64,000 nucleotides of DNA. It comes from Moniliella sp. 'wahieum'. Its lineage: Eukaryota. Shown here one piece after another: positions 2,841-48,998 of this stretch; position 1 is the stretch's first letter, and every line of letters begins with the position of its first letter. Both the position numbers and the translations under genes were made by a program. Below the pieces are notes generated by a model, which made no database searches, had not been told where the DNA came from, and was given only the letters and a program-made list of their open reading frames with translations. Location of the stretch: contig RSEE01000142.1 in NCBI GenBank assembly GCA_003971905.1, positions 62,001 through 126,000 on the forward strand, given 5' to 3'.

Positions 2841-2935
2841 GGCAATGTGCCCGAGCGGTTAAGGGGATTGATTCGAATGCGCTTCGAACTATCAATTAGG
2901 CTTTGCCTGCACAGGTTCGAGTCCTGTCATTGTCG
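2841..2935 (+). tRNA. tRNA-Ser(CGA) with 13-nt intron (2878-2890)
   Basis: Acceptor stem GGCAATG/CATTGTC, anticodon stem ATTGA/TCAAT with CGA at 2874-2876, long variable arm AGGC-TTT-GCCT, T-loop GTTCGAG, discriminator G, then an oligo-T Pol III terminator (2936-2942). Confidence 0.95.
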
Positions 2936-24131: not shown

Positions 24132-26649
24132 ATGGCTCCTTCGCTCGTCTCGACGCCGCCCCGGCGTCCGACCCCTTTGTCCGCCGCCCCCTGCACGCCG
24201 TCCGCCGCGCGCCCGCCCCTCCGCCCCCGCCCGTGCCCGCGACGACACGGCCGCCGCCCAGAGTCTGCGCGCCCAGTTCCCCGACCAACTGCGCCAACTC
24301 CGTGTGCTCTTCCCGACTGGTCCGATGAAGACCTGCTCTTTGTCCTCGGCGATGCCGGCGGCGAGGTCGAGGCCGCCGCCGGCCTGATTGGCGACGGCTT
24401 TGCGACCCAGTTTGCCTCGGTCAAGACCCACCCCCCAAGAAAGAACCCCGGAGGGCACCCTGTTCCTTCCTCCAGCCCCGCCCCTGCCTCGGTCGCGCGT
24501 GCCGGCCGGCCTGTCTCCTCGGCTGCCGGCCGGGGCGGCGGCCGGGCCGGCCGCGGGGGCCGTCCCCAGGGCCCCGGAACCAAGTCGAATGCCTCGTCGG
24601 ATGGCAAGACGGCCGCTGCACCTGCACCTCCTGCATCTGCGCCCGCCCCCAAGCCCGCCGCCTAGTTGGGCCGACAGGATCAAAACGTCGCAGGCCAACA
24701 AGGCCGCTGCCGTGGCCGCCGCCCGTGCATCGCGCGCTGCGGCCCAAGCGTCCCATGAGCCCCCCAAAGCGGACGATGCACCGCAAGAGTGCCACCGAAG
24801 ATGCGTTCCCGCCAGTGAACGAGTCGGCGCCCTCGTCTTCGTCCCCGGTTGCGCCTGCGGTGCCGCCTGCGGCGACAGGCGACGCTGCATCCAAGCCCGC
24901 TATGAGCTGGGCCCAGATCGTGACCCACCCCAAGCCGCTCCCGCCGCTGCGGCCCACGAGGAGCCGCGCCCTGCCGAAACGGAAGCAACCGAGGCGACCG
25001 AATCGCACGAGACTGCACCCGCCGCCGCCGAGATTGCGCCGGAGCACGAGGCTGCCCCGCTCCCGAGGCACAAGAGAAGAACCGGCCCCTGCCGCTGCCC
25101 CCGAAGAAACCGCGGGAGCCGAGTCAGGGTCTCAACCCCACCCCGAACCCCTCCCTGAAGTCACTGAATCTGCTCCGGAACCTGCTTCGGAGCCCGCGCT
25201 AGCGCGGCGCCCGAACCGGAACCCGAGGCGGTGCAAGAAGAACCCCCCAAGGCATCCTCGCCTGCACCTGCACCTGCACCTGTTCCTGCCCCGCTCCTGC
25301 TGCTGCTCCTGTCTCTGTCTCTGCCCCCCCCAGCGCCAGCAGCCGCTGGAGGAGCCATCAAGATCCCTGCCACGCGCAAGCAAGCCCAGCCGCTCGTCAT
25401 CCCCGGTGGTCCTGCGTCGCTGGAGAGCTGGGTGTGCAGTTTGGTTCGTTGGGGGTCGAGTCGGAGGCTGCGCTGCGCTGGCTTCCGCTGCGCCGACTCC
25501 CGCCGCTGCCGCTGCACCTTCTCGGCCGCTGCCCTATGGATGCGAGCGCAGCTGTCGAGCCGCCGCGTGGCGCGGCGCCTCCCGGTGCGGCCTCGTTGCC
25601 GCCCAACCCATTGACAGGAGCGCCGGCCATGCCGACGGCCGCGCCGGGCCTGTACGACCGGTTCCATCCGTCGTTTGCGCAACCTCCGCATGCGGCGCAG
25701 CCGGCGCGCAGCGGCTGCCTCAGCCCCCTCCCGTGCCCACGCCCAATGGTGCCTTTGCCACCCGCCCATCCCGACGGCGCAGCCCATCCGCCGACTGGGT
25801 TTGAGGGGTACACGGGGTACGGGTTCCCCTCGGCGCCGGCCCCGACGGCAGCCACGGCGCCGTATGGGCTGGGCGCGACGCCGGGCGCCCCCTGGCGCGG
25901 GGCCGACCCAGCCGCCGCCGCCGCCGGCCCAGCAAGAGTACGGGTACCAAGGGCGCGATGCGCGCAACCTGAGCCACTTTTACGGCGGCGCGTACGACCC
26001 CAGTGCGCTGCACCTGCGCGGGGAGGACAAGGCGGCCGGCGCGGAGCCGGCGGCAGCCGTGCCGGGGGCAGCGGTGCCGACGCCCGGACAAGCGGGCCCG
26101 CCGACGCAGCCGCCGGCGCAGCCGCAGCAGTACCCGGGCATGATGCCGTACTTTTACCAGCCGTACTACATGCCGAACCAGTACCAGTACGGGCAGCCGG
26201 GGTACATGCCGGTGTATGGGCAGGGCCAGCCGCAGGTGGGCAAGTATGCGCCGGGGCAGGAGGGGGGCTACTACGCGACGCCGGGCACGGAGTTTGGAGC
26301 GGGCGGCGGCGGGGCCGTCGGAGTACAGCAACAAGCGTACCAGCCGGGGCTGCTGAAGCCGACGGCGCCGGCGGCGGGTGCGGGCGCGGGCAAGTCGTCG
26401 CCGGCGCTGGCGAATGCGGGGCTGGACTACCGCTTTGACAACAAGGCGGGCGCGGCGCGGCGGGGCGCGGGCGCGGCGGCGGGCGCGCTGGAGCAGGGCA
26501 CGCCGCGCTCGACGCCGGCCAGCGCAGCGCGCGCCCAGCCGGGGCAGAGCTTCTACCACTACGGCTACAACCAGACGGGCTACGGCTCGTACCCCTACAC
26601 CTTCCCGCAGGGCAACGCACGCGCTGGCGCCAGGCCTGAGGGCACGTGA
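24132..26649 (+). CDS. DEF1: RNA polymerase II degradation factor Def1-like protein (CUE domain, low-complexity Pro/Gln/Tyr tail)
   Basis: CUE-like QLRVLFPDWSDEDLLFVLGDAGGEVEAAAGLIGDGFATQFASVK, plus KPAMSWAQIV, VQFGSLG and GMMPYFYQPYYMPNQY. Frameshifts present. Confidence 0.8.
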
Positions 26650-26839: not shown

Positions 26840-29209
26840 ATGTCCCTCGCCTCCCCCGCGCCCACCACGGCGCCGTGGCCGTCGGCGACAACTACCCCGT
26901 CGTCCCCCCTGCCCTGCCCTGCCTGCGCGCCACCACCGTCCCCGCTCTCCACCGCACCCCACTCGGCGTGCCCGCCGCCCCCCTCGCGCCCGCCGCATCG
27001 GGAGGCGGGTGGGTGCCGAGCGTTGGGCCGTCGATGGCGTCGGTACCGCTTGGCTTTGGTCCGGTTCCGTCGCTCGGCCCCGACCTCGCCCTCGCCCTGC
27101 CGCCCGCGGCGAGCGGGGTGGGAAGCGGACTGCCACTGGCTGAGCCCAGTCCCGCACCTGCGTTGCTTGCTGTCGATGCGTGCTCGACGTTGGAGGGCGA
27201 GGCGCGGGCGCAGGCGACGGCCATCATCCACTCGCTCGTCACTGCCGCCTGGCAGTTGGGTTGGGACCGGACTACGGTCGCCAGCCGGATCACCGAGCAA
27301 CTCAATCAGCGCCTGGGCCGCTCTTGGTCGACGATCGTCGGGCCGTCGTTTGCGTTTAATGTGCGGGAGCGGCCGCACAGCTTGCTCAACCTCCGTACGT
27401 GTGCGCCTCGTTGATTTGCTTGTTGCGTGTATTGTGTTGTGTTGTGTCCTGTTGGGCAAGGGTTGACCGTGTACATACATGCGTGACTAGGGATTGGCGA
27501 CTGGTGGGTGGCCGCGTGGAAGGGCGAAGAGGTGGGCGTGGGCAAGTCGAACAATAAGGAGGTGGGAGTGTACCGTGTCAAGGGGATCCAGACCGAAGTG
27601 AGCAACAAGGTGATGGAGGTGGTGCGAGAATCGATGGCGCAAGCGTCCCTGGTCGGTGCCGAACTTACCTCGCACATTCTCCAACGGCTTCACCAGCTCC
27701 TCGGGCCCGGCTGGCACCTGGTACCCGAGACGAATGTCAGTCTCTACACGCAGTTCCCGTCGGCCTTCTGTTTCCGTGCGGGCGAACAGGATTGGACCGT
27801 GTGGAACGAGCGGGACGCCAGCACGCATTCCCTCGGCTCCCTCAGCACCCTTGCTTCCGGCATGGTCTTGACTGGGACCGGTGTCCGTGACGTGCGTGAC
27901 TTTAGTCTGTCCGGCTTGTCTGCCTCGCAGAAATCGTACGCCACGTCAGCCTCGACGACGCTGGTGCAAAAAGTGCAAAACTACGTGGCGAGCTACGCGG
28001 CACAAGTGCAAGCCGGGCAGGAACGGGTGCAGATTGGCTCGTCGCACATGACTGATGCGTCGTATCACAATGCGGTATTGGATGTTTCCCTGGCGGCGAT
28101 TGCCGAAGCTTCGGCTACGGTGGACAAGCAACAGACCACCACCCTTGTCACCAACCGTCTGCGTACCCTCTTTGGTCCGGCCTGGCACGCACACATTGCC
28201 ACCGACACCTTTGTGCCGGTAAATGCGCCGGCGCTGCAGGTGCTCACCTACCGTCTGGACGACAAGTTTGTTACGCTCTGGCAAGCGCAAGCCACCGCAG
28301 TGCAGACCACATCCGAACCCGAGATGGAGATGGGGATGAAGATGGGCCACGCCGCAGCCCTGCAGCACAATAACAATAGCAGCAGCCTAACGACCACCCA
28401 CCAGGCCCTGCAGCACAACAAGCCTAGTCTGCTCAAACAGGCAGCGGGAGTAGCTGGTGGAGCTGCGATGGCCGGGTTGGGGTATGGACTGTACAAGCAC
28501 CATCAGCATACCGACCACAGCGATCACAACCCTCCCCCCGCGCTCAGCCGGGATCTGGATACGGTCCACCAAACCCTCAATACCACCACACACATCCAAA
28601 CGGGACCCAGCACGACCAGCGTTGACGCCCCCAGCCCCGTGGCCGTTGGAACGTTGGCTGCGGCGCACAAAGCCATCCGGGTCGAGGAATCTACGCTGGC
28701 GGCAGCCGAGCAGGCCGTGCTGCTAGAGGTGGCGGCGGAAGCGGTGGCGTGGCACTCGATGGCCGCGCGCACGTTTGCGCTCTGGCTCGAGTCGGCGCTG
28801 AACCGGACGATGAAGTGGGATGGGTGGCACGTTGTGGTGGAACGGGGCGAGTTTGGTGCTTCGTCCTACTCGGACTACCGCGAGGCGCTGAACCGGATCC
28901 GGTTTCACTGGGACGACAAGTACGTGACGGTGTGGCAAGGCGCGCAGCCCACTGGCCGGGGCCGGGGTGTGCGTGGACGCGCTCCGCGCACCTCGGTGAC
29001 GGATACGTTTGTGTGGAGTGAGCAGGTGCCGATCGGGACGGATTGGACGTGGGTGCAGGAGGGGAGCTTGCCCCTCCCCCTCGGCAGGTTCGATTGCGGG
29101 ATCGGTGTGGGGCTCCGGTTCAGCTGGATCGGACTCGGGATCGGTTAGCTCATCCGACTTAGCGTCCTCGTCCAACTTTACAGCTTCCACCTGGTGGTCC
29201 AAGCTGTAG
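26840..29209 (+). CDS. Uncharacterised protein with four tandem divergent dynein light chain (LC8)-like domains; probable C-terminal PTS1 (-SKL)
   Basis: Four roughly 85-95 aa repeats with the LC8 pattern (strand-S-x-L/M, two helices, L-x3-(L/F)GPxWH/GxxW, strand, F-x-(I/L)G/D-x3-V-x-x-W): about 27163-27525, 27565-27810, 28027-28290, 28672-28941. Phase-1 intron 27395-27490 joins the two ORFs in frame. Start needs a 1-nt correction (alternative ATG 27034). The SKL frame is reached by a 70-nt intron (29018-29087) or a 1-nt indel; otherwise the stop is at 29148. Confidence 0.75.
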
Positions 29210-30229
29210 TCTCTATCCCTCCGAGTCATGCACGATGCGCTTTGCGTCATCTCGAGGAAACAAATGTCCCTCTCTCGCCTCTCTCTTCGCCCACGTCCAA
29301 ATCATCTATAGCCCCACAGGTTTTCTCCTTCCCCTGCCCTGCCCCGAATGTCATCACTCCTGGGCCACAATAGGGCGAATACATTTTGGTCAACTTGACA
29401 GCTTTTCTCACTGGTCTTCCTGGTCGCTTTGTTATCATCTCTCCCCCAGGGCCGAGAAGAGGTACAGTAATAGAAGTGTTGGTACAAAACGTCATATAGC
29501 GGTGTCGGTATAACCTAGACGGCTGTCCTGGCAAACTGTGAGTACCTGTCGAGGAGGCAGGCCGGGGACAGGCAGGGTGGACAGGCTCGTGTCTCCCTCC
29601 CCAAAACTCGCAGTGTGCTCTGTATGATTTAGGGGGGCTGGGTGGTGCGCTGCGGATGGCCTCTCGGGAGGGGGTCGAACACAGCACCGGTAGGGCAAGG
29701 CTTCTCTGCCCTGGAACGCTGGCCTTGTGCGAGCATATGTGCGATCCAAGAGGGGAGATGGGACGCGATCTATTCCAAGCGGTGGGGGTCATGAATATAT
29801 CAGTACTCCGTGGGCGGAGCGCACAGACTGGGCCCGTGCCCGCCAGGCGCCCAACGAGGCCGCCCACCGCAGCGGCTGTTTCTCGGCACATGTGGAGTGT
29901 GCTGGGGTGCCAGGGTGGCGCAGTGCTCCCACCAAGGAGAGATCCAAGAGCGGCTGACGTGCTGCCGTGCCAGCCGTGCGCTTTGGCTTCGCTTGGCCCC
30001 TCGTGCTCTCCTCTGCGAACGACCCCTTAGGCCGCACCCGCCCCCCCACCGCCAGCATACTAGCCTGCCCGTCCCCACCGGAAGATGGAAGCTTAAGCAC
30101 ACATCCTCTGGCCCCCAGCCCATCTCTCTCGTATCCGTTTTGCGCATGCGGTGGATTAGTAGCTGCTGTGCATCGTGCGCTCTTCTTGCTCCGTCGCTCG
30201 CATCCAATGAGAAATGAAGTTGAAGTGTC

Positions 30230-30237
30230 TATATAAA
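30230..30237 (+). promoter_or_regulatory. TATA box of the second LC8-repeat gene
   Basis: TATATAAA about 140 bp upstream of ATG 30376, with CCAAT at 30204 and a CT-rich leader downstream. Confidence 0.6.
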
Positions 30238-30375
30238 GCCAAAGCACAAGCCTGTTCCCTTCCCCCACCCCTTTCCCGCAGCCCCTACCCCCTCTTCTTC
30301 CCACCGTTGCAAGCGTGACCACTCGCGCCCGTACCACCGCGCACGTCCCATCTACTGCCCCTCGCCACCATTATC

Positions 30376-32381
30376 ATGTCCTCCTCGCTTTCATCTTCGC
30401 TGTCCATCACCGTGTCCACCGTCGAGTCGACGGTGCAGGAATCGCTGACGTCGCTCGTCAGCGCCGCGCTAGCGCGGCTGAATGGCGCGCCGCTGCTGGA
30501 GCGCACGCGTGCCGAGCTGGCGCGGTACATTATCGCTACCGCCGAAGCGCGCCACGGACTGTTTTGGCACTTTGTCATGGGCAGTGACTGGGTGTATGCG
30601 TCGCACGAGCAGGCGAATGCGGCTGGGGCACGGTTGGAAGGCGTGCTGGAGTACCAAGGCGAACCGATCAAGTTTACCCTGTGGCAAACCAAGTGGACCG
30701 GCGCGGCGGGCGCAGGGGCGCCGGGTCCACCCCAGTTCACCGCCTCGACCCTCCCGGGCCCGATCCAGTCCCGCCTCGTGGTCCTGATCCAACAGCTGTA
30801 CAGCCTGCATGGCGCCCAGGCCGCCGCTCTCGCCCCCGTCTTTCTCGCCGACAACCTCAATGCCAGTTTCGGTTCGGGCTGGGTCGTCGTCGTCGGCACA
30901 GCAGCGGCGTCGTTGCAGAGCAGCGTGTATGCCACGTTTCGTACGTTTTTTTCATTCCATTTCATTTCTTGTCTTCTTGCCTCACGCCAACCTTGGCATA
31001 CACTGACCTCGCTTGCACCCTATCGACGCTCCTACAGAGATTGGCAAGGACGTGTTCACGCTATGGAAAGCCCCGGGCGGGAGCCAGGAGGAAGAGACTT
31101 CGGTGTACCTGACCGGGACGCGCTTTGTCCGCCAACAACCCATCCCTGCTCCTAGCTCCATCCTGACCCCTCGCAGTATCGACGTGGTCGTGCCCTCGGT
31201 TCAGCCCGTTCCGCAGCTGGCTCCCCAGCCGGTGGCTCCGTCTGTTTCTACAACGTCTGTTGTGGAAGTGCAGCAGGTTCCCCAGGTGGTGTACCAGCCT
31301 GCTCCTCAGCCTGCTCCTCAGCCCTTCTTCCAGCCCAGTCCGCAGCCTGCCCCGCAGCCCATCTTCCACCCGGCTCCCGCTCCGCAGCCGGCGCCTGAGC
31401 TGACCACCCAGGTGGTCCAGATCTCCCAGCCCGTTCCGCAGCCTGTGCCACGGTCTATCCCGCAGCAGCTTGTGCCGCAATCCAGTTCGCAAACGTTCGT
31501 GGGGGTGCCTGCGACGCTGGCTCCGCCTCCCGCGGTTCCGACGACGCAGACGCAGCAGTCCGAATGGTCCGAGCTGCACACTTCGATCCAACACTCGCTG
31601 GTTGTGCCCGAGGCGTCGGTGGACAAGCTGCGTTCGTCGATCGTGATTGAGCGTACGACGCTCGCTGCGTCCGAGCAGAGCCAAGTGATCAACCTTGTGA
31701 TTGCCACCTTGCTTCAGCACATCTCTGCGGGCAAGACCACGTCGCCTGCGGACTTGGCGGTGCTGAAGCAAACGCTTTCGACGCAGCTGGATGGATGGCA
31801 AGTGCTTGTCGGTCCCTACGGCTCGCACGTCCGTAGCGATGCCAAGAACCTTCTGGCGTTCTGTACGTTTTTCCCATACTCTTTTCTGCTTGCTATGGCT
31901 CCAGCCGCGTATTGACTCTGTGTGGGCAGCCATCGCGGGCTACTACCTCGCGCTTGTCCGCCCCTCGCGGAGCACCATCAAGGTGTCTCTCACGACGACG
32001 ACCGTGGGCGAGAAGGCTGTGGAGCAGGTGGGCATTGTGGAGCAGGCGGTGGATGGGCAACCGTCGGGCCAAGTCAAGGTGGTTGCCTCGGACTGGAAGA
32101 CGGCGAACGACCAGGTGTCGGCGCGCCTGTACGGGATCATTGGCGGCGCGCTCTTGTCGCAACAACAGCACCTGCTTGCCCTGGACGAGCTGGCGCACTA
32201 CCTGGGCCAGCGGGCCAGTGCCGCGCTCGGCGCCGGCTGGACGGCACAGGTCTCGGAGCAGCCGTTTGCCCCGGCCATCGCCTCGGTGTTGGGCGCGAGC
32301 TATGTTGTGGCGTCGGCGCAGGTGGGGGGCAAGACGTTGCACGTGGTGCTGTACCATTCGGCGCCGCGCCCCCATCTGTGA
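30376..32381 (+). CDS. Second uncharacterised protein with four divergent LC8-like domains and a Pro/Gln-rich central linker
   Basis: Exons 30376-30940, 31038-31862 and 31930-32381 splice in frame with no frameshift. Domains about 30406-30693 (ELARYIIATAEARHGLFWHFVMGSDW), 30733-31075 (FLADNLNASFGSGWVVVVG), 31640-31964 (LDGWQVLVGPYGSHVRSD) and 32073-32360 (LAHYLGQRASAALGAGWTAQVS). Ends APRPHL*. Confidence 0.8.
31290..31460 (+). repeat. Imperfect 12-bp coding tandem repeat (CAGCCTGCTCCT/CCG) encoding (QPAP)n
   Basis: cagcctgctcctcagcctgctcctcagccc...cgcagcctgccccgcagccc...ccgcagccggcgcct within the linker of the second LC8-repeat gene. Confidence 0.7.
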
Positions 32382-32896
32382 AAGGGCGTGTTTGGGCGGT
32401 TGGATCCATGGTGTCTAGCCTCGTTGGGGGGGGGGGGGGGGGCGTCACATGAGCACCACATTCTACACGGACACCTCTTCCCCTGATGCTGGGGGCTGGG
32501 GCCATTTCCCACCAGCTATAGCGTGTGATATGATCTCTGATTGTTTTGATGCCTAGCTGTGCACGAGGAGGGCGGTAGGGGATGTGACAGGATGGCGTGT
32601 TGTGGGCTGCCTGGGGCTGGGGAGCGGGAGGAAAGAGGAGGCAGTCGCATGGCCAGCTGAGTGTATCCGTCTGTATTGGATGGGTACCAGAGGCTCTGTT
32701 CTGTCGTGCGCTGCGCTGCGCCGCTTACGTGTGCGTGCAGCTAACCCTACGCTCGCTGCACCCGGTGCGGGGGACGGGATGACATAAGCAGGCAGGCGGC
32801 TGGGCCAGTGCGCGCACCCTCGCAGCCACCCGGACGAGCTGAGCCACTCAGCACGCCGCCCCAGGCCTTCGTCCCAGCCGCCTCCATCCCTCCGCC

Positions 32897-34213
32897 ATGG
32901 CCGACGACCGCCCCCTTGTCGTCGACAACGGCACCGGCTTCGTCAAGGCTGGCTATGCCGGCAGCAACTTCCCCGCCCACATCTTCCCCTCCATTGTCGG
33001 CCGCCCCATCCTGCGTGTCGAGGAGCGCGACCATGTCGATGTCGAGATCAAGGACATCATGGTGGGCGACGAGGCCGCCGCCGTGCGCAACTATCTCCAG
33101 GTCTCCCAGCCGATGGAGCATGGTGTGGTCAAGGACTTTGCCGACATGCGCCATGTGTGGAACTACACCTTTGACGAGAAACTCAAGGTCGACCCCCAGG
33201 GCCGCAAGATCCTTCTGACCGAACCCCCGATGAACCCCAAGCGCAACCGCGAGGAGATGTGCCAGATCATGTTTGAAGAGTATGGGTTTGACGGCGTGTA
33301 TGTGGCGATCCAGGCGGTGCTCACCCTCTATGCTCAGGGGCTGCAGACCGGCGTCGTCGTCGACTCGGGCGATGGCGTAACCCACGTGGTGCCCGTGTAC
33401 GAAGGATTTGCTCTTCCCCACCTCACTCGCCGTCTGGACGTGGCCGGACGCGATGTGACGCTACCTCATCAAGCTGTTGCTGATGCGAGGCTATGCCTTT
33501 AACCGCACGGCCGACTTTGAGACTGTGCGCGAGGTCAAGGAAAAGCTGAGCTACGTCAGGTGAGTGCCCGCCCCCCTCACTCACTCCTTGCACACCCTCC
33601 TGACCCTTCTCACCAGTTACGACATTGCCATGGACAAGAAACTGGCTGAGGAGACGACAACACTGGTGGAGCAATACGAAGTATGCAATGCGGCCCCTTT
33701 CTCCCTTCTCCCCGCTCCCTTCTCGTAGCCAGGGCCCCTAATCGCTAACGGTATATTCTCTCTTCAGTTACCCGATGGCCGCATTATCAAGGTTGGTTCC
33801 GAGCGCTTTGAGGCACCGGAATGCTTGTTCCAGCCCGAGCTGGTCGATGTGGAGCAGCCAGGGATGGGAGAGCTGTTGTTTAACACAATCCAAGCTGCTG
33901 CTCTGGACACGCGTGCTGAACTGTACAAGCACATTGTGCTTTCCGGTGGTTCGTCCATGTACCCTGGTCTGCCCAGCCGTCTGGAAAAGGAGATGAAACA
34001 ACTCTACCTCACCCCGTCTTGCACGGCGACGCTTCCCGTCTGCCTGGCTTCAAAATCCGGATCGAGGACCCACCGCGTCGCAAGCACATGGTGTTCCTTG
34101 GCGGTGCGGTGCTGGCCGACATTATGAAGAACCGCGAGTCGTTCTGGGTCAGCCGGCAGGAGTGGTACGAAAAGGGTCCTGCGGCGCTGGACAAGCTAGG
34201 CCGTGACGCTTAA
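32897..34213 (+). CDS. ARP2: Actin-related protein 2 (Arp2/3 complex)
   Basis: [116 protein letters not shown]. Introns 33560-33616 and 33681-33767. Two small indels. Confidence 0.97.
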
Positions 34214-36528: not shown

Positions 36529-36815
36529 GGCGTGCAGGCTGGGGAAGAGAGGGGAGTTGGACTTGTAGAGAAAAAATAACCCAGTAGTGGGTGAGCGTTG
36601 AGGGCATCAGAAAAAAAATGGCGGAACTGCGGCCATTCCGCCTCGGCCGGGCGATGATCGCGTACTATCCCTATGTGGTGGCGCCCAGGACGGGGGGTAT
36701 CTGGCATGACCATGACCTATGAGTTCCCCGCCATCCTCTTTCCTGCCGTACTTGTCTCGACAATACAATGCCATGGCTGTTGGGCCCTGAGAATCACTAA
36801 GGAACCATGAAAAAC

Positions 36816-37908
36816 TTACTTCCAAGCCAGAGCCTTGCGAGCCATAGCCAGCGCGCCCTCCTGGGTTTTGTTTCCTCCAATAAAGCCCGAGGCGTGGACG
36901 AAGACGCCGCCAGGAATGCCCGTGACGTCCGACAGCTGGTCATCCCGCACACCGCGCCACGGCTCGGGGAGAGCCTTGCGGGAGATGAAGCTCGATTCGG
37001 AGACGGGGACCGCTTGAATCCGCCAGCTGCCCGCCTCGTCCGGGAAGACAACGTAGAGGATGTTGTGTCCTCGGTCAACCCCAGCTTCTTCTCCCGCCCG
37101 AAAATGTGCGACTTCCAATTGACGTACTCGGTGAGGAGGAGAATGCGCCCATCGGCGTCGGGAACGAGCTCGGTGCGCTTGGCCAGAGCCGCGTCGACAA
37201 GTTCCCGAGCAGGCAGCCAGGACTTCATCGTCCACTCGACGCGGTTCCAGAACTCGGTCCCGGCCATAGCGCTGGCCTGCTCAAAGCGCTCCATCCGGCT
37301 CGCATCGTTCTTCAGCTCGGGCTCGTTCCAGGAAGGGTTGAGCGTGCCCACGCGCGCGCTTAGGTCCGTGCGCGACGTGTACCGCGGCTCCCCATCAAAC
37401 GCCGAGATGCCATTGTCAATCCCGTCGATGGCCTGCACAAAGTCGTCGTACAGCTTAAGCCACAGTTCCTCCACCAACTCCTTGTCCAGCTTGGGGAAGT
37501 TGTGAGCGAGGATTTCTTGGCCAAAATGCCTGTCCTTTCGTTAGCATCGAAGGGTAATCGGTCGGCGCGCCGGGAGCTGGCGCGCGCACGGGAGGAGTGA
37601 AGGGGGAGGGGGGGGAGGTACACATACTTCCAAGTCAGACCGGCCGAAGAAAGCTTAATGGCGTGGTTGTCGTCAAAGGTGGTGTTGAAGCCGCGCTGGT
37701 GATGGTCGAACCGTTGCTTTTCCGGCTCGTACGTGGCACCTACATCGACCACAATCGTGCCGCGGTCGATGAGTGCCGGGTCACGAGTGCGGGTAAGGGG
37801 GAGCTGGCTGAAGCGGGGCAGACGGCGCAAAAGCGATACGGCCAGCGCCTCGTCAGCGTGAAAGTCGCCCGAGTGGGTCACGATTCCGAGGGGCTCTTGG
37901 GCGGACAT
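36816..37908 (-). CDS. MYG1: MYG1 (GAMM1) family exonuclease
   Basis: THSGDFHADEALA, VVDVGATY..RFDHHQRGF, KLSSAGLTWK|HFG, AIDGIDNGI, SRKALPEPWRGVRDDQLS..FVHASGFIGGNKT. One intron about 37531-37627. Confidence 0.95.
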
Positions 37909-38549
37909 AGTGGTGGGGCTGGGCCGGTGCGAGGACGCTTGGGAGAAAAGGAGTGGCCATGGGGTTTAGGCGGACGTTGCGATTTTGCGAAGAAAAAAAA
38001 AGAGGCAGCGAATGGGTGCGGTCGGCCTTTGCTTGAATTTACCAGTGCTGGCCCCAACACCAATTTCTGCGGGGGAGGGTAGGGTTTGCAATTAGTAATA
38101 GATGAAATTGCAACACAGACACACTGCCCCTGTGGGATGGCTTTTGTGTGGTGTGTCGACTGGGCGAGGCCATCCTTGGTCCGTCCCCAGAGACGTGCTG
38201 AAGGCGGGGCGAGGCGTCGCGAGCGCAAGCTCGCGTGCGTGCAAGCCAGCGGCAGGCGTCTGGCCGGACGCGGCCGGTCCGTCCCTCTGCCGGTCCTCAG
38301 CATCCCAGCCAGGCACTGCCCGCTATGCTCTCCCTTCGCTCTCCCTGGGAGCCTACCTCTGCGCCGTTTCTCTCTCTTCACCTCTGCCCAAAGGTACGTC
38401 TCCTTCCACGCCCCCGTTCCTGATACTGACTTGTCTAGCACAGCGCTGATCCAAGCGTGCAAGCAAGCTACGGCTCAGATGCCCCCGCTTCTGCTACCAC
38501 GAGCGCCTCAACGTGGCCGATAATTGCTGCATGTGTCTGGTAGAGAGCA

Positions 38550-48902: not shown

Positions 48903-48998
48903 TGGTCAATATGAGGCTTGAACTCATGACCTTGGCATCACCAACACTCCGAGGCGGATGTATTAGTACCACGCTCTGACCAACTGAGCTAATCGACC
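48903..48998 (-). tRNA. tRNA-Ile(AAT) with 22-nt intron (48939-48960)
   Basis: Minus strand reads GGTCGATTAGCTCAGTTGGTCAGAGCG-TGGTA-CTAATA-[intron]-A-TGCCA-AGGTC-ATGAGTTCAAGCCTCAT-ATTGACC-A, followed by a T-run terminator. Confidence 0.95.

Follow-up and report, generated by a model that had tools for sequence, protein, structure and literature searches.

The question raised by the two genes described here is whether three introns that interrupt the same codon in three different protein repeats are copies of a single intron, which was carried along when the repeats were multiplied, or whether they reached this codon by independent routes. The genes lie in a 64,000-nucleotide (nt) stretch of DNA from Moniliella sp. 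'wahieum' (contig RSEE01000142.1, positions 62,001 to 126,000 of the forward strand), which was analysed as a whole and is referred to below as the window; all coordinates are positions in this window. Each gene is predicted to encode four highly diverged repeats, connected by linkers and related to the dynein light chain LC8, and three of these eight repeats are interrupted by an intron. The best explanation for the arrangement is that the three introns are copies of one intron, which was duplicated as part of the genomic DNA of the repeat. What favours this reading is that the introns occupy an identical aligned codon in an identical phase, that this codon does not lie in a proto-splice context, and that the repeats are homologous LC8 folds.

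The two genes are arranged head to tail at approximately 27.0-32.4 kb, and both of them, together with all of their exons, introns and repeats, are on the plus strand. Gene 1 (27034-27394 + 27491-29148) has 672 codons and one intron, gene 2 (30376-30940 + 31038-31862 + 31930-32381) has 613 codons and two introns, and these three introns are all that the genes contain. The start assigned to gene 1, namely the first ATG in frame, is uncertain, the frame being already open from 26776. Intron 1 (27395-27490, 96 nt) splits R121 as C|GG within SLLNL-R-IGDWW, intron 2 (30941-31037, 97 nt) splits Q189 as C|AG within VYATF-Q-IGKDV, and intron 3 (31863-31929, 67 nt) splits S464 as T|CC within NLLAF-S-IAGYY. 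All three are phase 1 and begin with GTACGT; intron 1 ends in TAG and the other two end in CAG, and each contains a branch-like YTRAY motif 18-35 nt before the acceptor (TTGAC at -28, CTGAC at -35 and TTGAC at -18, respectively). The GC content of the introns is 0.50, 0.47 and 0.51, as against 0.64-0.65 in the exons, and retention of any one of them breaks the reading frame, either through in-frame stops or through a length not divisible by three. An independent and crude scan of the whole window, in which GT...AG segments were sought that bridge two open frames rich in GC at third codon positions (GC3), returned the identical three sets of coordinates.

The relationship of the repeats to LC8 was evaluated by profile comparison, pairwise alignment and structure prediction. 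The repeats, numbered g1R1-g1R4 and g2R1-g2R4, are only 10-30% identical to one another, and a hidden Markov model built from them has exactly eight matches in the window, with none elsewhere. Comparison with the Pfam family PF01221 (Dynein_light) gives 30.1 bits for exon 2 of gene 1, where the cutoff is 29.1 (expectation value, E, 6.2e-7), and 26.2 bits, under the cutoff, for exon 1 of gene 2; the exon part of g1R1 matches with E 1.8e-5, and five of the eight repeats, when taken singly, match at E<=10, the best with 25.4 bits and all of them under the cutoff. A profile of the eight repeats has 43 matches (E<=10) among all PDB sequences, of which 38 are dynein light chains and two are dynein light chain-like (DLC-like) domains, with a best E of 2.3e-4, and alignment of this profile by hhalign to 45 canonical LC8 sequences, which are translations of metagenome loci, yields a probability of 96.4% and E 1.1e-9. 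Local alignments of pairs of repeats, when compared with shuffled sequences, reach z-scores of 14.3 (g1R4-g2R3), 9.4 (g1R2-g1R3) and 8.4 (g1R3-g1R4). A search by ESM-Atlas features gives 30 matches, 16 of them to Dynein_light clusters (score 0.90).

Two of the eight repeats, both intron-free, were folded with AlphaFold: g1R2, with a predicted local distance difference test score (pLDDT) of 82.4 and a predicted template-modelling score (pTM) of 0.73, and g2R4, the most diverged repeat, with a pLDDT of 85.7 and a pTM of 0.78. Both models show the LC8 order of elements, and the top Foldseek matches listed for them in the PDB are LC8-type chains only, with template-modelling scores of 0.6-0.74. 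Every repeat is anchored on an invariant Trp, which is that of the canonical TWH motif, and four of the eight have the next His; the groove strand beta3, NFGS(Y/F)VTHE in canonical LC8, is absent from all eight. Judged from the sequence profiles, the pairwise scores and the two predicted models, the repeats are demonstrably homologous LC8 folds, and the homology that a preliminary description of this DNA had proposed is to this extent borne out.

The equivalence of the codons that the introns split was evaluated in the same diverged repeats. When all eight repeats are aligned, each of three MAFFT modes places the three split codons in a single column, and when nine canonical LC8 sequences are included this column coincides with the second Y of YF-Y-LG. 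R121 is paired with the same Y by hhalign, and in a HMMER alignment to a solved LC8 it is the consensus residue of the column that stands opposite this Y. Counting back from the last aromatic or aliphatic residue of beta5, the split codon, or its counterpart in an intron-free repeat, is found 9 residues earlier in all eight repeats; the models of g1R2 and g2R4 show this column as the penultimate residue of beta4, immediately ahead of the Gly turn. The uninterrupted codons in the column are CGT at 27775-27777 (R216, g1R2), CGT at 28252 (g1R3), CAC at 28906 (g1R4), CAA at 30655 (g2R1) and CAG at 32319 (g2R4, placed by the structure model); all five begin with C, as do two of the three split codons. 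The preliminary description had assigned the introns to the Y of FIYF-Y-LG in LC8, an assignment with which the MAFFT alignment to canonical LC8 and the hhalign pairing agree, and its intron coordinates, phase 1, GTACGT starts and split codons were all reproduced exactly on re-derivation.

At all three introns, beta5 is encoded by the next exon. Exon 1 of gene 1 (27034-27394) encodes a low-complexity N-terminus and then g1R1 to the end of beta4, and exon 2 (27491-29148) continues with beta5 of g1R1, followed by the intron-free repeats g1R2 (27565-27819), g1R3 (28024-28296) and g1R4 (28669-28950) and the stop codon. In gene 2, exon 1 (30376-30940) encodes g2R1 (30400-30699) and then g2R2 to the end of beta4; exon 2 (31038-31862) starts with beta5 of g2R2 and runs through a linker rich in P and Q into g2R3, which it encodes as far as the end of beta4; and exon 3 (31930-32381) encodes beta5 of g2R3, g2R4 (32067-32369) and the stop codon. 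The hexamer GTACGT is also found within the coding sequence of g1R4 (28920-28925, plus strand; codons K-Y-V), 14 nt downstream of the intron-equivalent codon, where it is taken to be coding sequence and is probably a coincidence.

If three introns are placed at random over 3855 coding positions, the probability that they fall in one column and in one phase is 1.5e-6, and this probability rises to 1.2e-4 if a displacement of ±1 codon and any phase are allowed. The shared intron site is non-random. The exon sequences that surround the introns (CTCC|GG, TTTC|AG and TTCT|CC) are not proto-splice sites of the AG|G type, and two of the three downstream exons begin with RGATTGGC, which supplies codons for I-G. 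Beyond the splice signals, the similarity of the introns to one another is not significant (z 0.57, -0.03 and 1.63), from which it follows that the site they share is an old one. The same lack of significant similarity is the reason for rejecting gene conversion or recent copying of the introns.

We regard it as likely that an LC8-like unit carried, or once acquired, a phase-1 intron, and that the intron-bearing DNA was then duplicated and the copies diverged. In the sequence of events envisaged, the unit would have carried the intron, or gained it once, at the codon before beta5; duplication of genomic DNA with the intron in it would have followed, within one gene to begin with and later producing the gene pair; divergence would then have left position, phase and splice signals as all that the copies had in common; and some repeats would have lost the intron precisely, as is proposed at least for g1R4, or would stem from units in which it was never present. 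The distribution of introns among the repeats can be accounted for by as few as two or three events. Since the introns share their phase, exon 2 of gene 2 (825 nt, 275 codons) is a symmetric 1-1 exon, which unequal recombination between introns could copy or delete in frame. The direction of change, whether gain or loss, and this mechanism of recombination are matters that we infer.

In the maximum-likelihood tree, the eight repeats are split from canonical LC8 with support of 83/90, and the intron-bearing repeats g1R1 and g2R2 are weakly paired (81/78); the minimum on this tree is two changes of intron state. Approximately unbiased (AU) tests do not reject a clade of the three intron-bearing repeats (p 0.35), which corresponds to one gain and no loss, nor do they reject g1R4 and g2R3 as sisters (p 0.60), which corresponds to at least one loss, or a group of all four repeats formed by the three intron-bearing ones and g1R4 (p 0.43). 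The intron-free g1R4 is by far nearest to the intron-bearing g2R3 (BLAST E 1.5e-6, in addition to the pairwise z-score of 14.3), and at least one precise loss of the intron is therefore likely. In gene 1 the intron is kept only in the 5'-most repeat, and gene 2 shows no such bias; recombination with cDNA is expected to remove introns preferentially towards the 3' end, an expectation that fits the pattern in gene 1 but not that in gene 2.

These results bear on the claim, made in the preliminary description, that the repeats arose by DNA-level duplication of one intron-bearing ancestral domain, with loss of the intron in the other five. Duplication as DNA is supported for the intron-bearing copies by the shared codon and phase (P ~1e-6) and by the lack of a proto-splice context. 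The evolutionary scenario attached to it stands in part: at least one loss is favoured by the affinity of g1R4 and g2R3, but an intron-bearing ancestor of all eight repeats with five subsequent losses is not established, as the AU tests (p 0.35 and 0.60) indicate.

Several points count against descent from a single intron. GTACGT is a frequent donor in this DNA, with 26 occurrences in the window as against 11.9 expected (none of 100 shuffles reaches 26), and it is found at other candidate introns of the window as well, so that the hexamer shared by the three introns adds little. The gene models were assembled from open reading frames and splice signals, from which the use of the three junctions in mRNA is likewise predicted, and the assembly contains apparent frameshifts in adjoining conserved genes. 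The equivalence of the sites in g1R1, g2R2 and g2R3 is established by alignment, the structural models being of intron-free repeats. Resolution in the repeat tree is poor, with long end branches throughout and only one of 14 inner branches starred, and the tree does not polarise gain against loss. Finally, no orthologue with which the intron patterns could be compared was found in the searches described below.

It is also conceivable, if unlikely, that the lineage's canonical LC8 gene was the source of the intron, the founder of the arrays having been a copy of DYN2 with a phase-1 intron at the Y codon. Such an origin would accord with the status of the repeats as LC8 homologues that lie on one side of the branch separating them from canonical LC8. 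Its principal consequence was examined in a set of 121 LC8 loci, which were collected from metagenome contigs using a degenerate pattern for NFGS(Y/F)VTHE; a good many of the contigs may be assembled transcripts, and no contig of known basidiomycete origin is among them. In 114 of the 121 loci the frame stays open all the way between the pattern and the stop codon. Three loci are cut by the contig end, two of them after the intron-equivalent codon has been passed; in two, TAA or TAG occurs in frame, as it would under a variant genetic code; and an intron lies 6 codons upstream of the site in one (L039) and 4 codons downstream of it in another (L093). Among the 120 canonical LC8 loci that cover the second-Y codon of YF-Y-LG, yeast DYN2 included, none has an intron there. 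The in-frame TAA or TAG codons (loci L066 and L090) fall at the conserved Gln of LGQ, which fits a genetic code in which they specify Gln. In one further locus (L081:117-583), the final ~20 LC8 codons are repeated in tandem three more times immediately after a complete gene, which may be either an assembly artefact or a real micro-duplication.

Introns are present elsewhere in these genes: 26 of the loci are in two or more pieces, and in 18 of these loci, in our reading, the pieces are separated by intron-sized gaps. On a reference of 91 residues, where the intron-equivalent codon is number 79, the gap boundaries lie near positions 18, 38, 45-51, 56, 60 and 73. Yeast DYN2 is described as having two introns (PMC3287188, PMC4338336), and the portions available of these two papers and of PMC2133080 give no intron positions for LC8 or DYN2. 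The yeast gene is represented in the sample by locus L061, which is 100% identical to residues 24-92 of Dyn2 in the PDB; these 69 codons are in one exon, and the two known introns must therefore lie upstream. The sample argues against a general LC8 intron at the second-Y codon and is compatible with a lineage-specific one, since it includes no LC8 gene from this organism or from an identified basidiomycete. A link to an intron in canonical DYN2 genes, which the preliminary description had proposed to check, accordingly finds no support among the 120 LC8 genes from metagenome contigs, although an origin of the intron in the DYN2 gene of this particular lineage would escape such a sample.

A second alternative, which we judge to be very improbable, is that at least one of the introns has been mis-called or that the genes are unexpressed relics, in which case the coincidence would in part be an artefact of modelling guided by open reading frames in an error-prone assembly. 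Apparent frameshifts do occur nearby, two in the Arp2 gene and one in MYG1, and the intron calls are made from the DNA sequence. The scan that bridges open reading frames finds only two other sites that also keep the frame open, a donor at 27401 (GTGCGC, 6 nt downstream, phase unchanged) and a distant acceptor at 31176. However, only the chosen sites restore beta5 in register in all three repeats: the alternative donor shifts the site by two codons without a change of phase, and the alternative acceptor would delete beta5. The three introns moreover resemble the homology-inferred introns of the Arp2, MYG1 and PDS5 genes in donor, branch, acceptor, length and GC content, and the 553-codon open reading frames, with a GC3 of 0.77 in gene 1 and 0.79 in gene 2, argue for real coding genes; GC3 by itself fails to distinguish coding from non-coding open reading frames across the GC-rich window.

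Parallel gains of introns at one codon in three diverged repeats, for example through a preferred sequence or structural context, deserve the least credence of all, for although the tree minimum of two state changes could formally represent two gains and two of the three downstream exons share the start RGATTGGC, the third site has a differing downstream context, random sites would coincide in column and phase with a probability of only ~1.5e-6, the sites have no common proto-splice motif (C|GG, C|AG and T|CC after CTC, TTT and TTC), and the five intron-free repeats have similar contexts (CGT, CGT, CAC, CAA and CAG) yet no intron.

Relatives of the two genes were sought among 5.8 billion protein clusters by word-index search, which returned nothing for exon 2 of gene 1, for the repeat profile or for exon 1 of gene 2 (the last compared with longer proteins); a metagenome scan with exon 2 of gene 1 returned no relatives, and a phmmer search of 1.84 billion representatives with the same exon returned nothing that matches the repeats. 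The sole phmmer match (P0001, 478 residues, E 9e-5) is to a Gly/Ala-rich segment outside the repeats, and the motif that matches this segment is repeated four times in P0001. The segment, at residues ~420-460 of gene 1 (28387-28509, plus strand), lies between g1R3 and g1R4 and is Gly/Ala-rich and hydrophobic, then His-rich; it may be membrane-associated or of a glycine-zipper type.

Canonical LC8 is a single-domain subunit of ~10 kDa that dimerises with itself by strand swapping and recognises peptides of the TQT type. The repeats share with LC8, DYNLL and Dyn2 the order of elements beta1-alpha1-alpha2-beta2-(beta3 region)-beta4-beta5 and, in all eight cases, the Trp of TWH. They differ from it in that canonical LC8 is a single homodimeric domain of ~89 residues, whereas here four domains are carried on a chain of 613-672 residues, and in that the repeats are only 10-19% identical to LC8 and do not keep the beta3 strand NFGS(Y/F)VTHE. 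For tandem LC8-like domains, the portions of the literature that were available yielded only fusions of EF-hand and DLC domains in flatworms. These TAL/CaBP proteins of the flatworm tegument (PDB 5x2d, 9voa and 5fx0), in which DLC-like domains are fused to EF-hands (PMC12347358, PMC5431922), resemble the present genes in placing diverged DLC-like modules in larger proteins, and flatworm DLC-like domains are among the matches of both the repeat profile and the g2R4 model. They are, however, animal proteins with one DLC-like domain after the EF-hands, whereas the present array is a four-fold tandem one in a fungal-type genome.

According to the exon-shuffling rules attributed to Patthy, duplicated repeats reportedly keep their introns at equivalent codons, and symmetric 1-1 exons are said to allow tandem duplication in frame. 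The present genes follow the same gene-structure logic as other duplicated domains with a conserved intron position and phase, in that the intron serves as evidence of homology, and gene structure has been used to recognise very diverged homologues (PMC9168663). The difference is that the intron here interrupts the domain itself, ahead of the final strand, instead of marking a domain border, and that the family is without detectable relatives elsewhere in the databases searched. The intron phenomenon follows a well-known textbook principle, and the four-fold LC8 architecture is the more novel aspect.

The repeats share so little identity that the common intron site acts as a sequence-independent marker of how the arrays were assembled. 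It indicates that the material which was copied was genomic, intron-bearing DNA and not cDNA, and if relatives were found, the intron character could be used to date the duplications. Four LC8 folds on one chain, with no homologue in the protein and metagenome searches, would be an architecture new to this fold. Because the beta3 groove strand is not kept, binding of canonical TQT motifs by the repeats appears doubtful from their sequences. The repeats occur in close pairs (g1R1-R2, g2R1-R2 and g2R3-R4), an arrangement which, by analogy, suggests that adjacent repeats pair within the chain in the manner of the LC8 dimer. It may be suggested very tentatively that the genes are the sole detectable members of a lineage-restricted family of single-chain proteins with four LC8 folds, which would have grown by duplicating, in frame, a unit delimited by a family-specific phase-1 intron, and in which neighbouring domains would pair as the halves of an LC8 dimer do, so as to form covalent, asymmetric hubs with a new binding specificity.

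The window has a GC content of ~0.62 and contains GT-AG spliceosomal introns, because of which it can be described as eukaryotic and fungal in style. The neighbours of the two genes are a PDS5 homologue upstream and the genes for Arp2, a Utp12-family WD40 protein and MYG1 downstream, none of which suggests a functional link to gene 1 or gene 2. The gene upstream of gene 1 (25615-26648, plus strand; GC3 0.86) ends in a long, prion-like, low-complexity tail rich in Q, G, Y and P, and it has no match in Pfam. A homopolymer of ~20 G at 32427-32446, just 3' of the stop codon of gene 2, may mark a weak spot in the assembly.

The Arp2 gene (32898-34210, plus strand; Pfam Actin, E 4.6e-57) requires two changes of frame that cannot be explained by introns. 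At ~33447-33450, in a CGCG stretch at RDVT-RYLIK, ~2 nt are missing, and at ~34003-34008, in a CCCC run at KQLYLTP-VLHGD, 1 nt is missing; these changes are probably indel errors in the assembly, a pseudogene being less likely. The introns inferred in this gene have the donors GTGAGT (33560, phase 2) and GTATGC (phase 0). MYG1 (UPF0160; 36800-37965, minus strand) has one intron (37530-37627) with a GTATGT donor, and an apparent frameshift near 37070-37076, where open reading frames in different frames cover profile positions 87-239 and 236-318 without a gap. At a greater distance, Rfam models detect two tRNA genes, at 2841-2935 (plus strand) and 48903-48998 (minus strand); ARAGORN in its default mode reports no tRNA in the window and misses both. 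Each of them is ~95 nt long, compared with the 71 positions of the model, and both probably contain introns.

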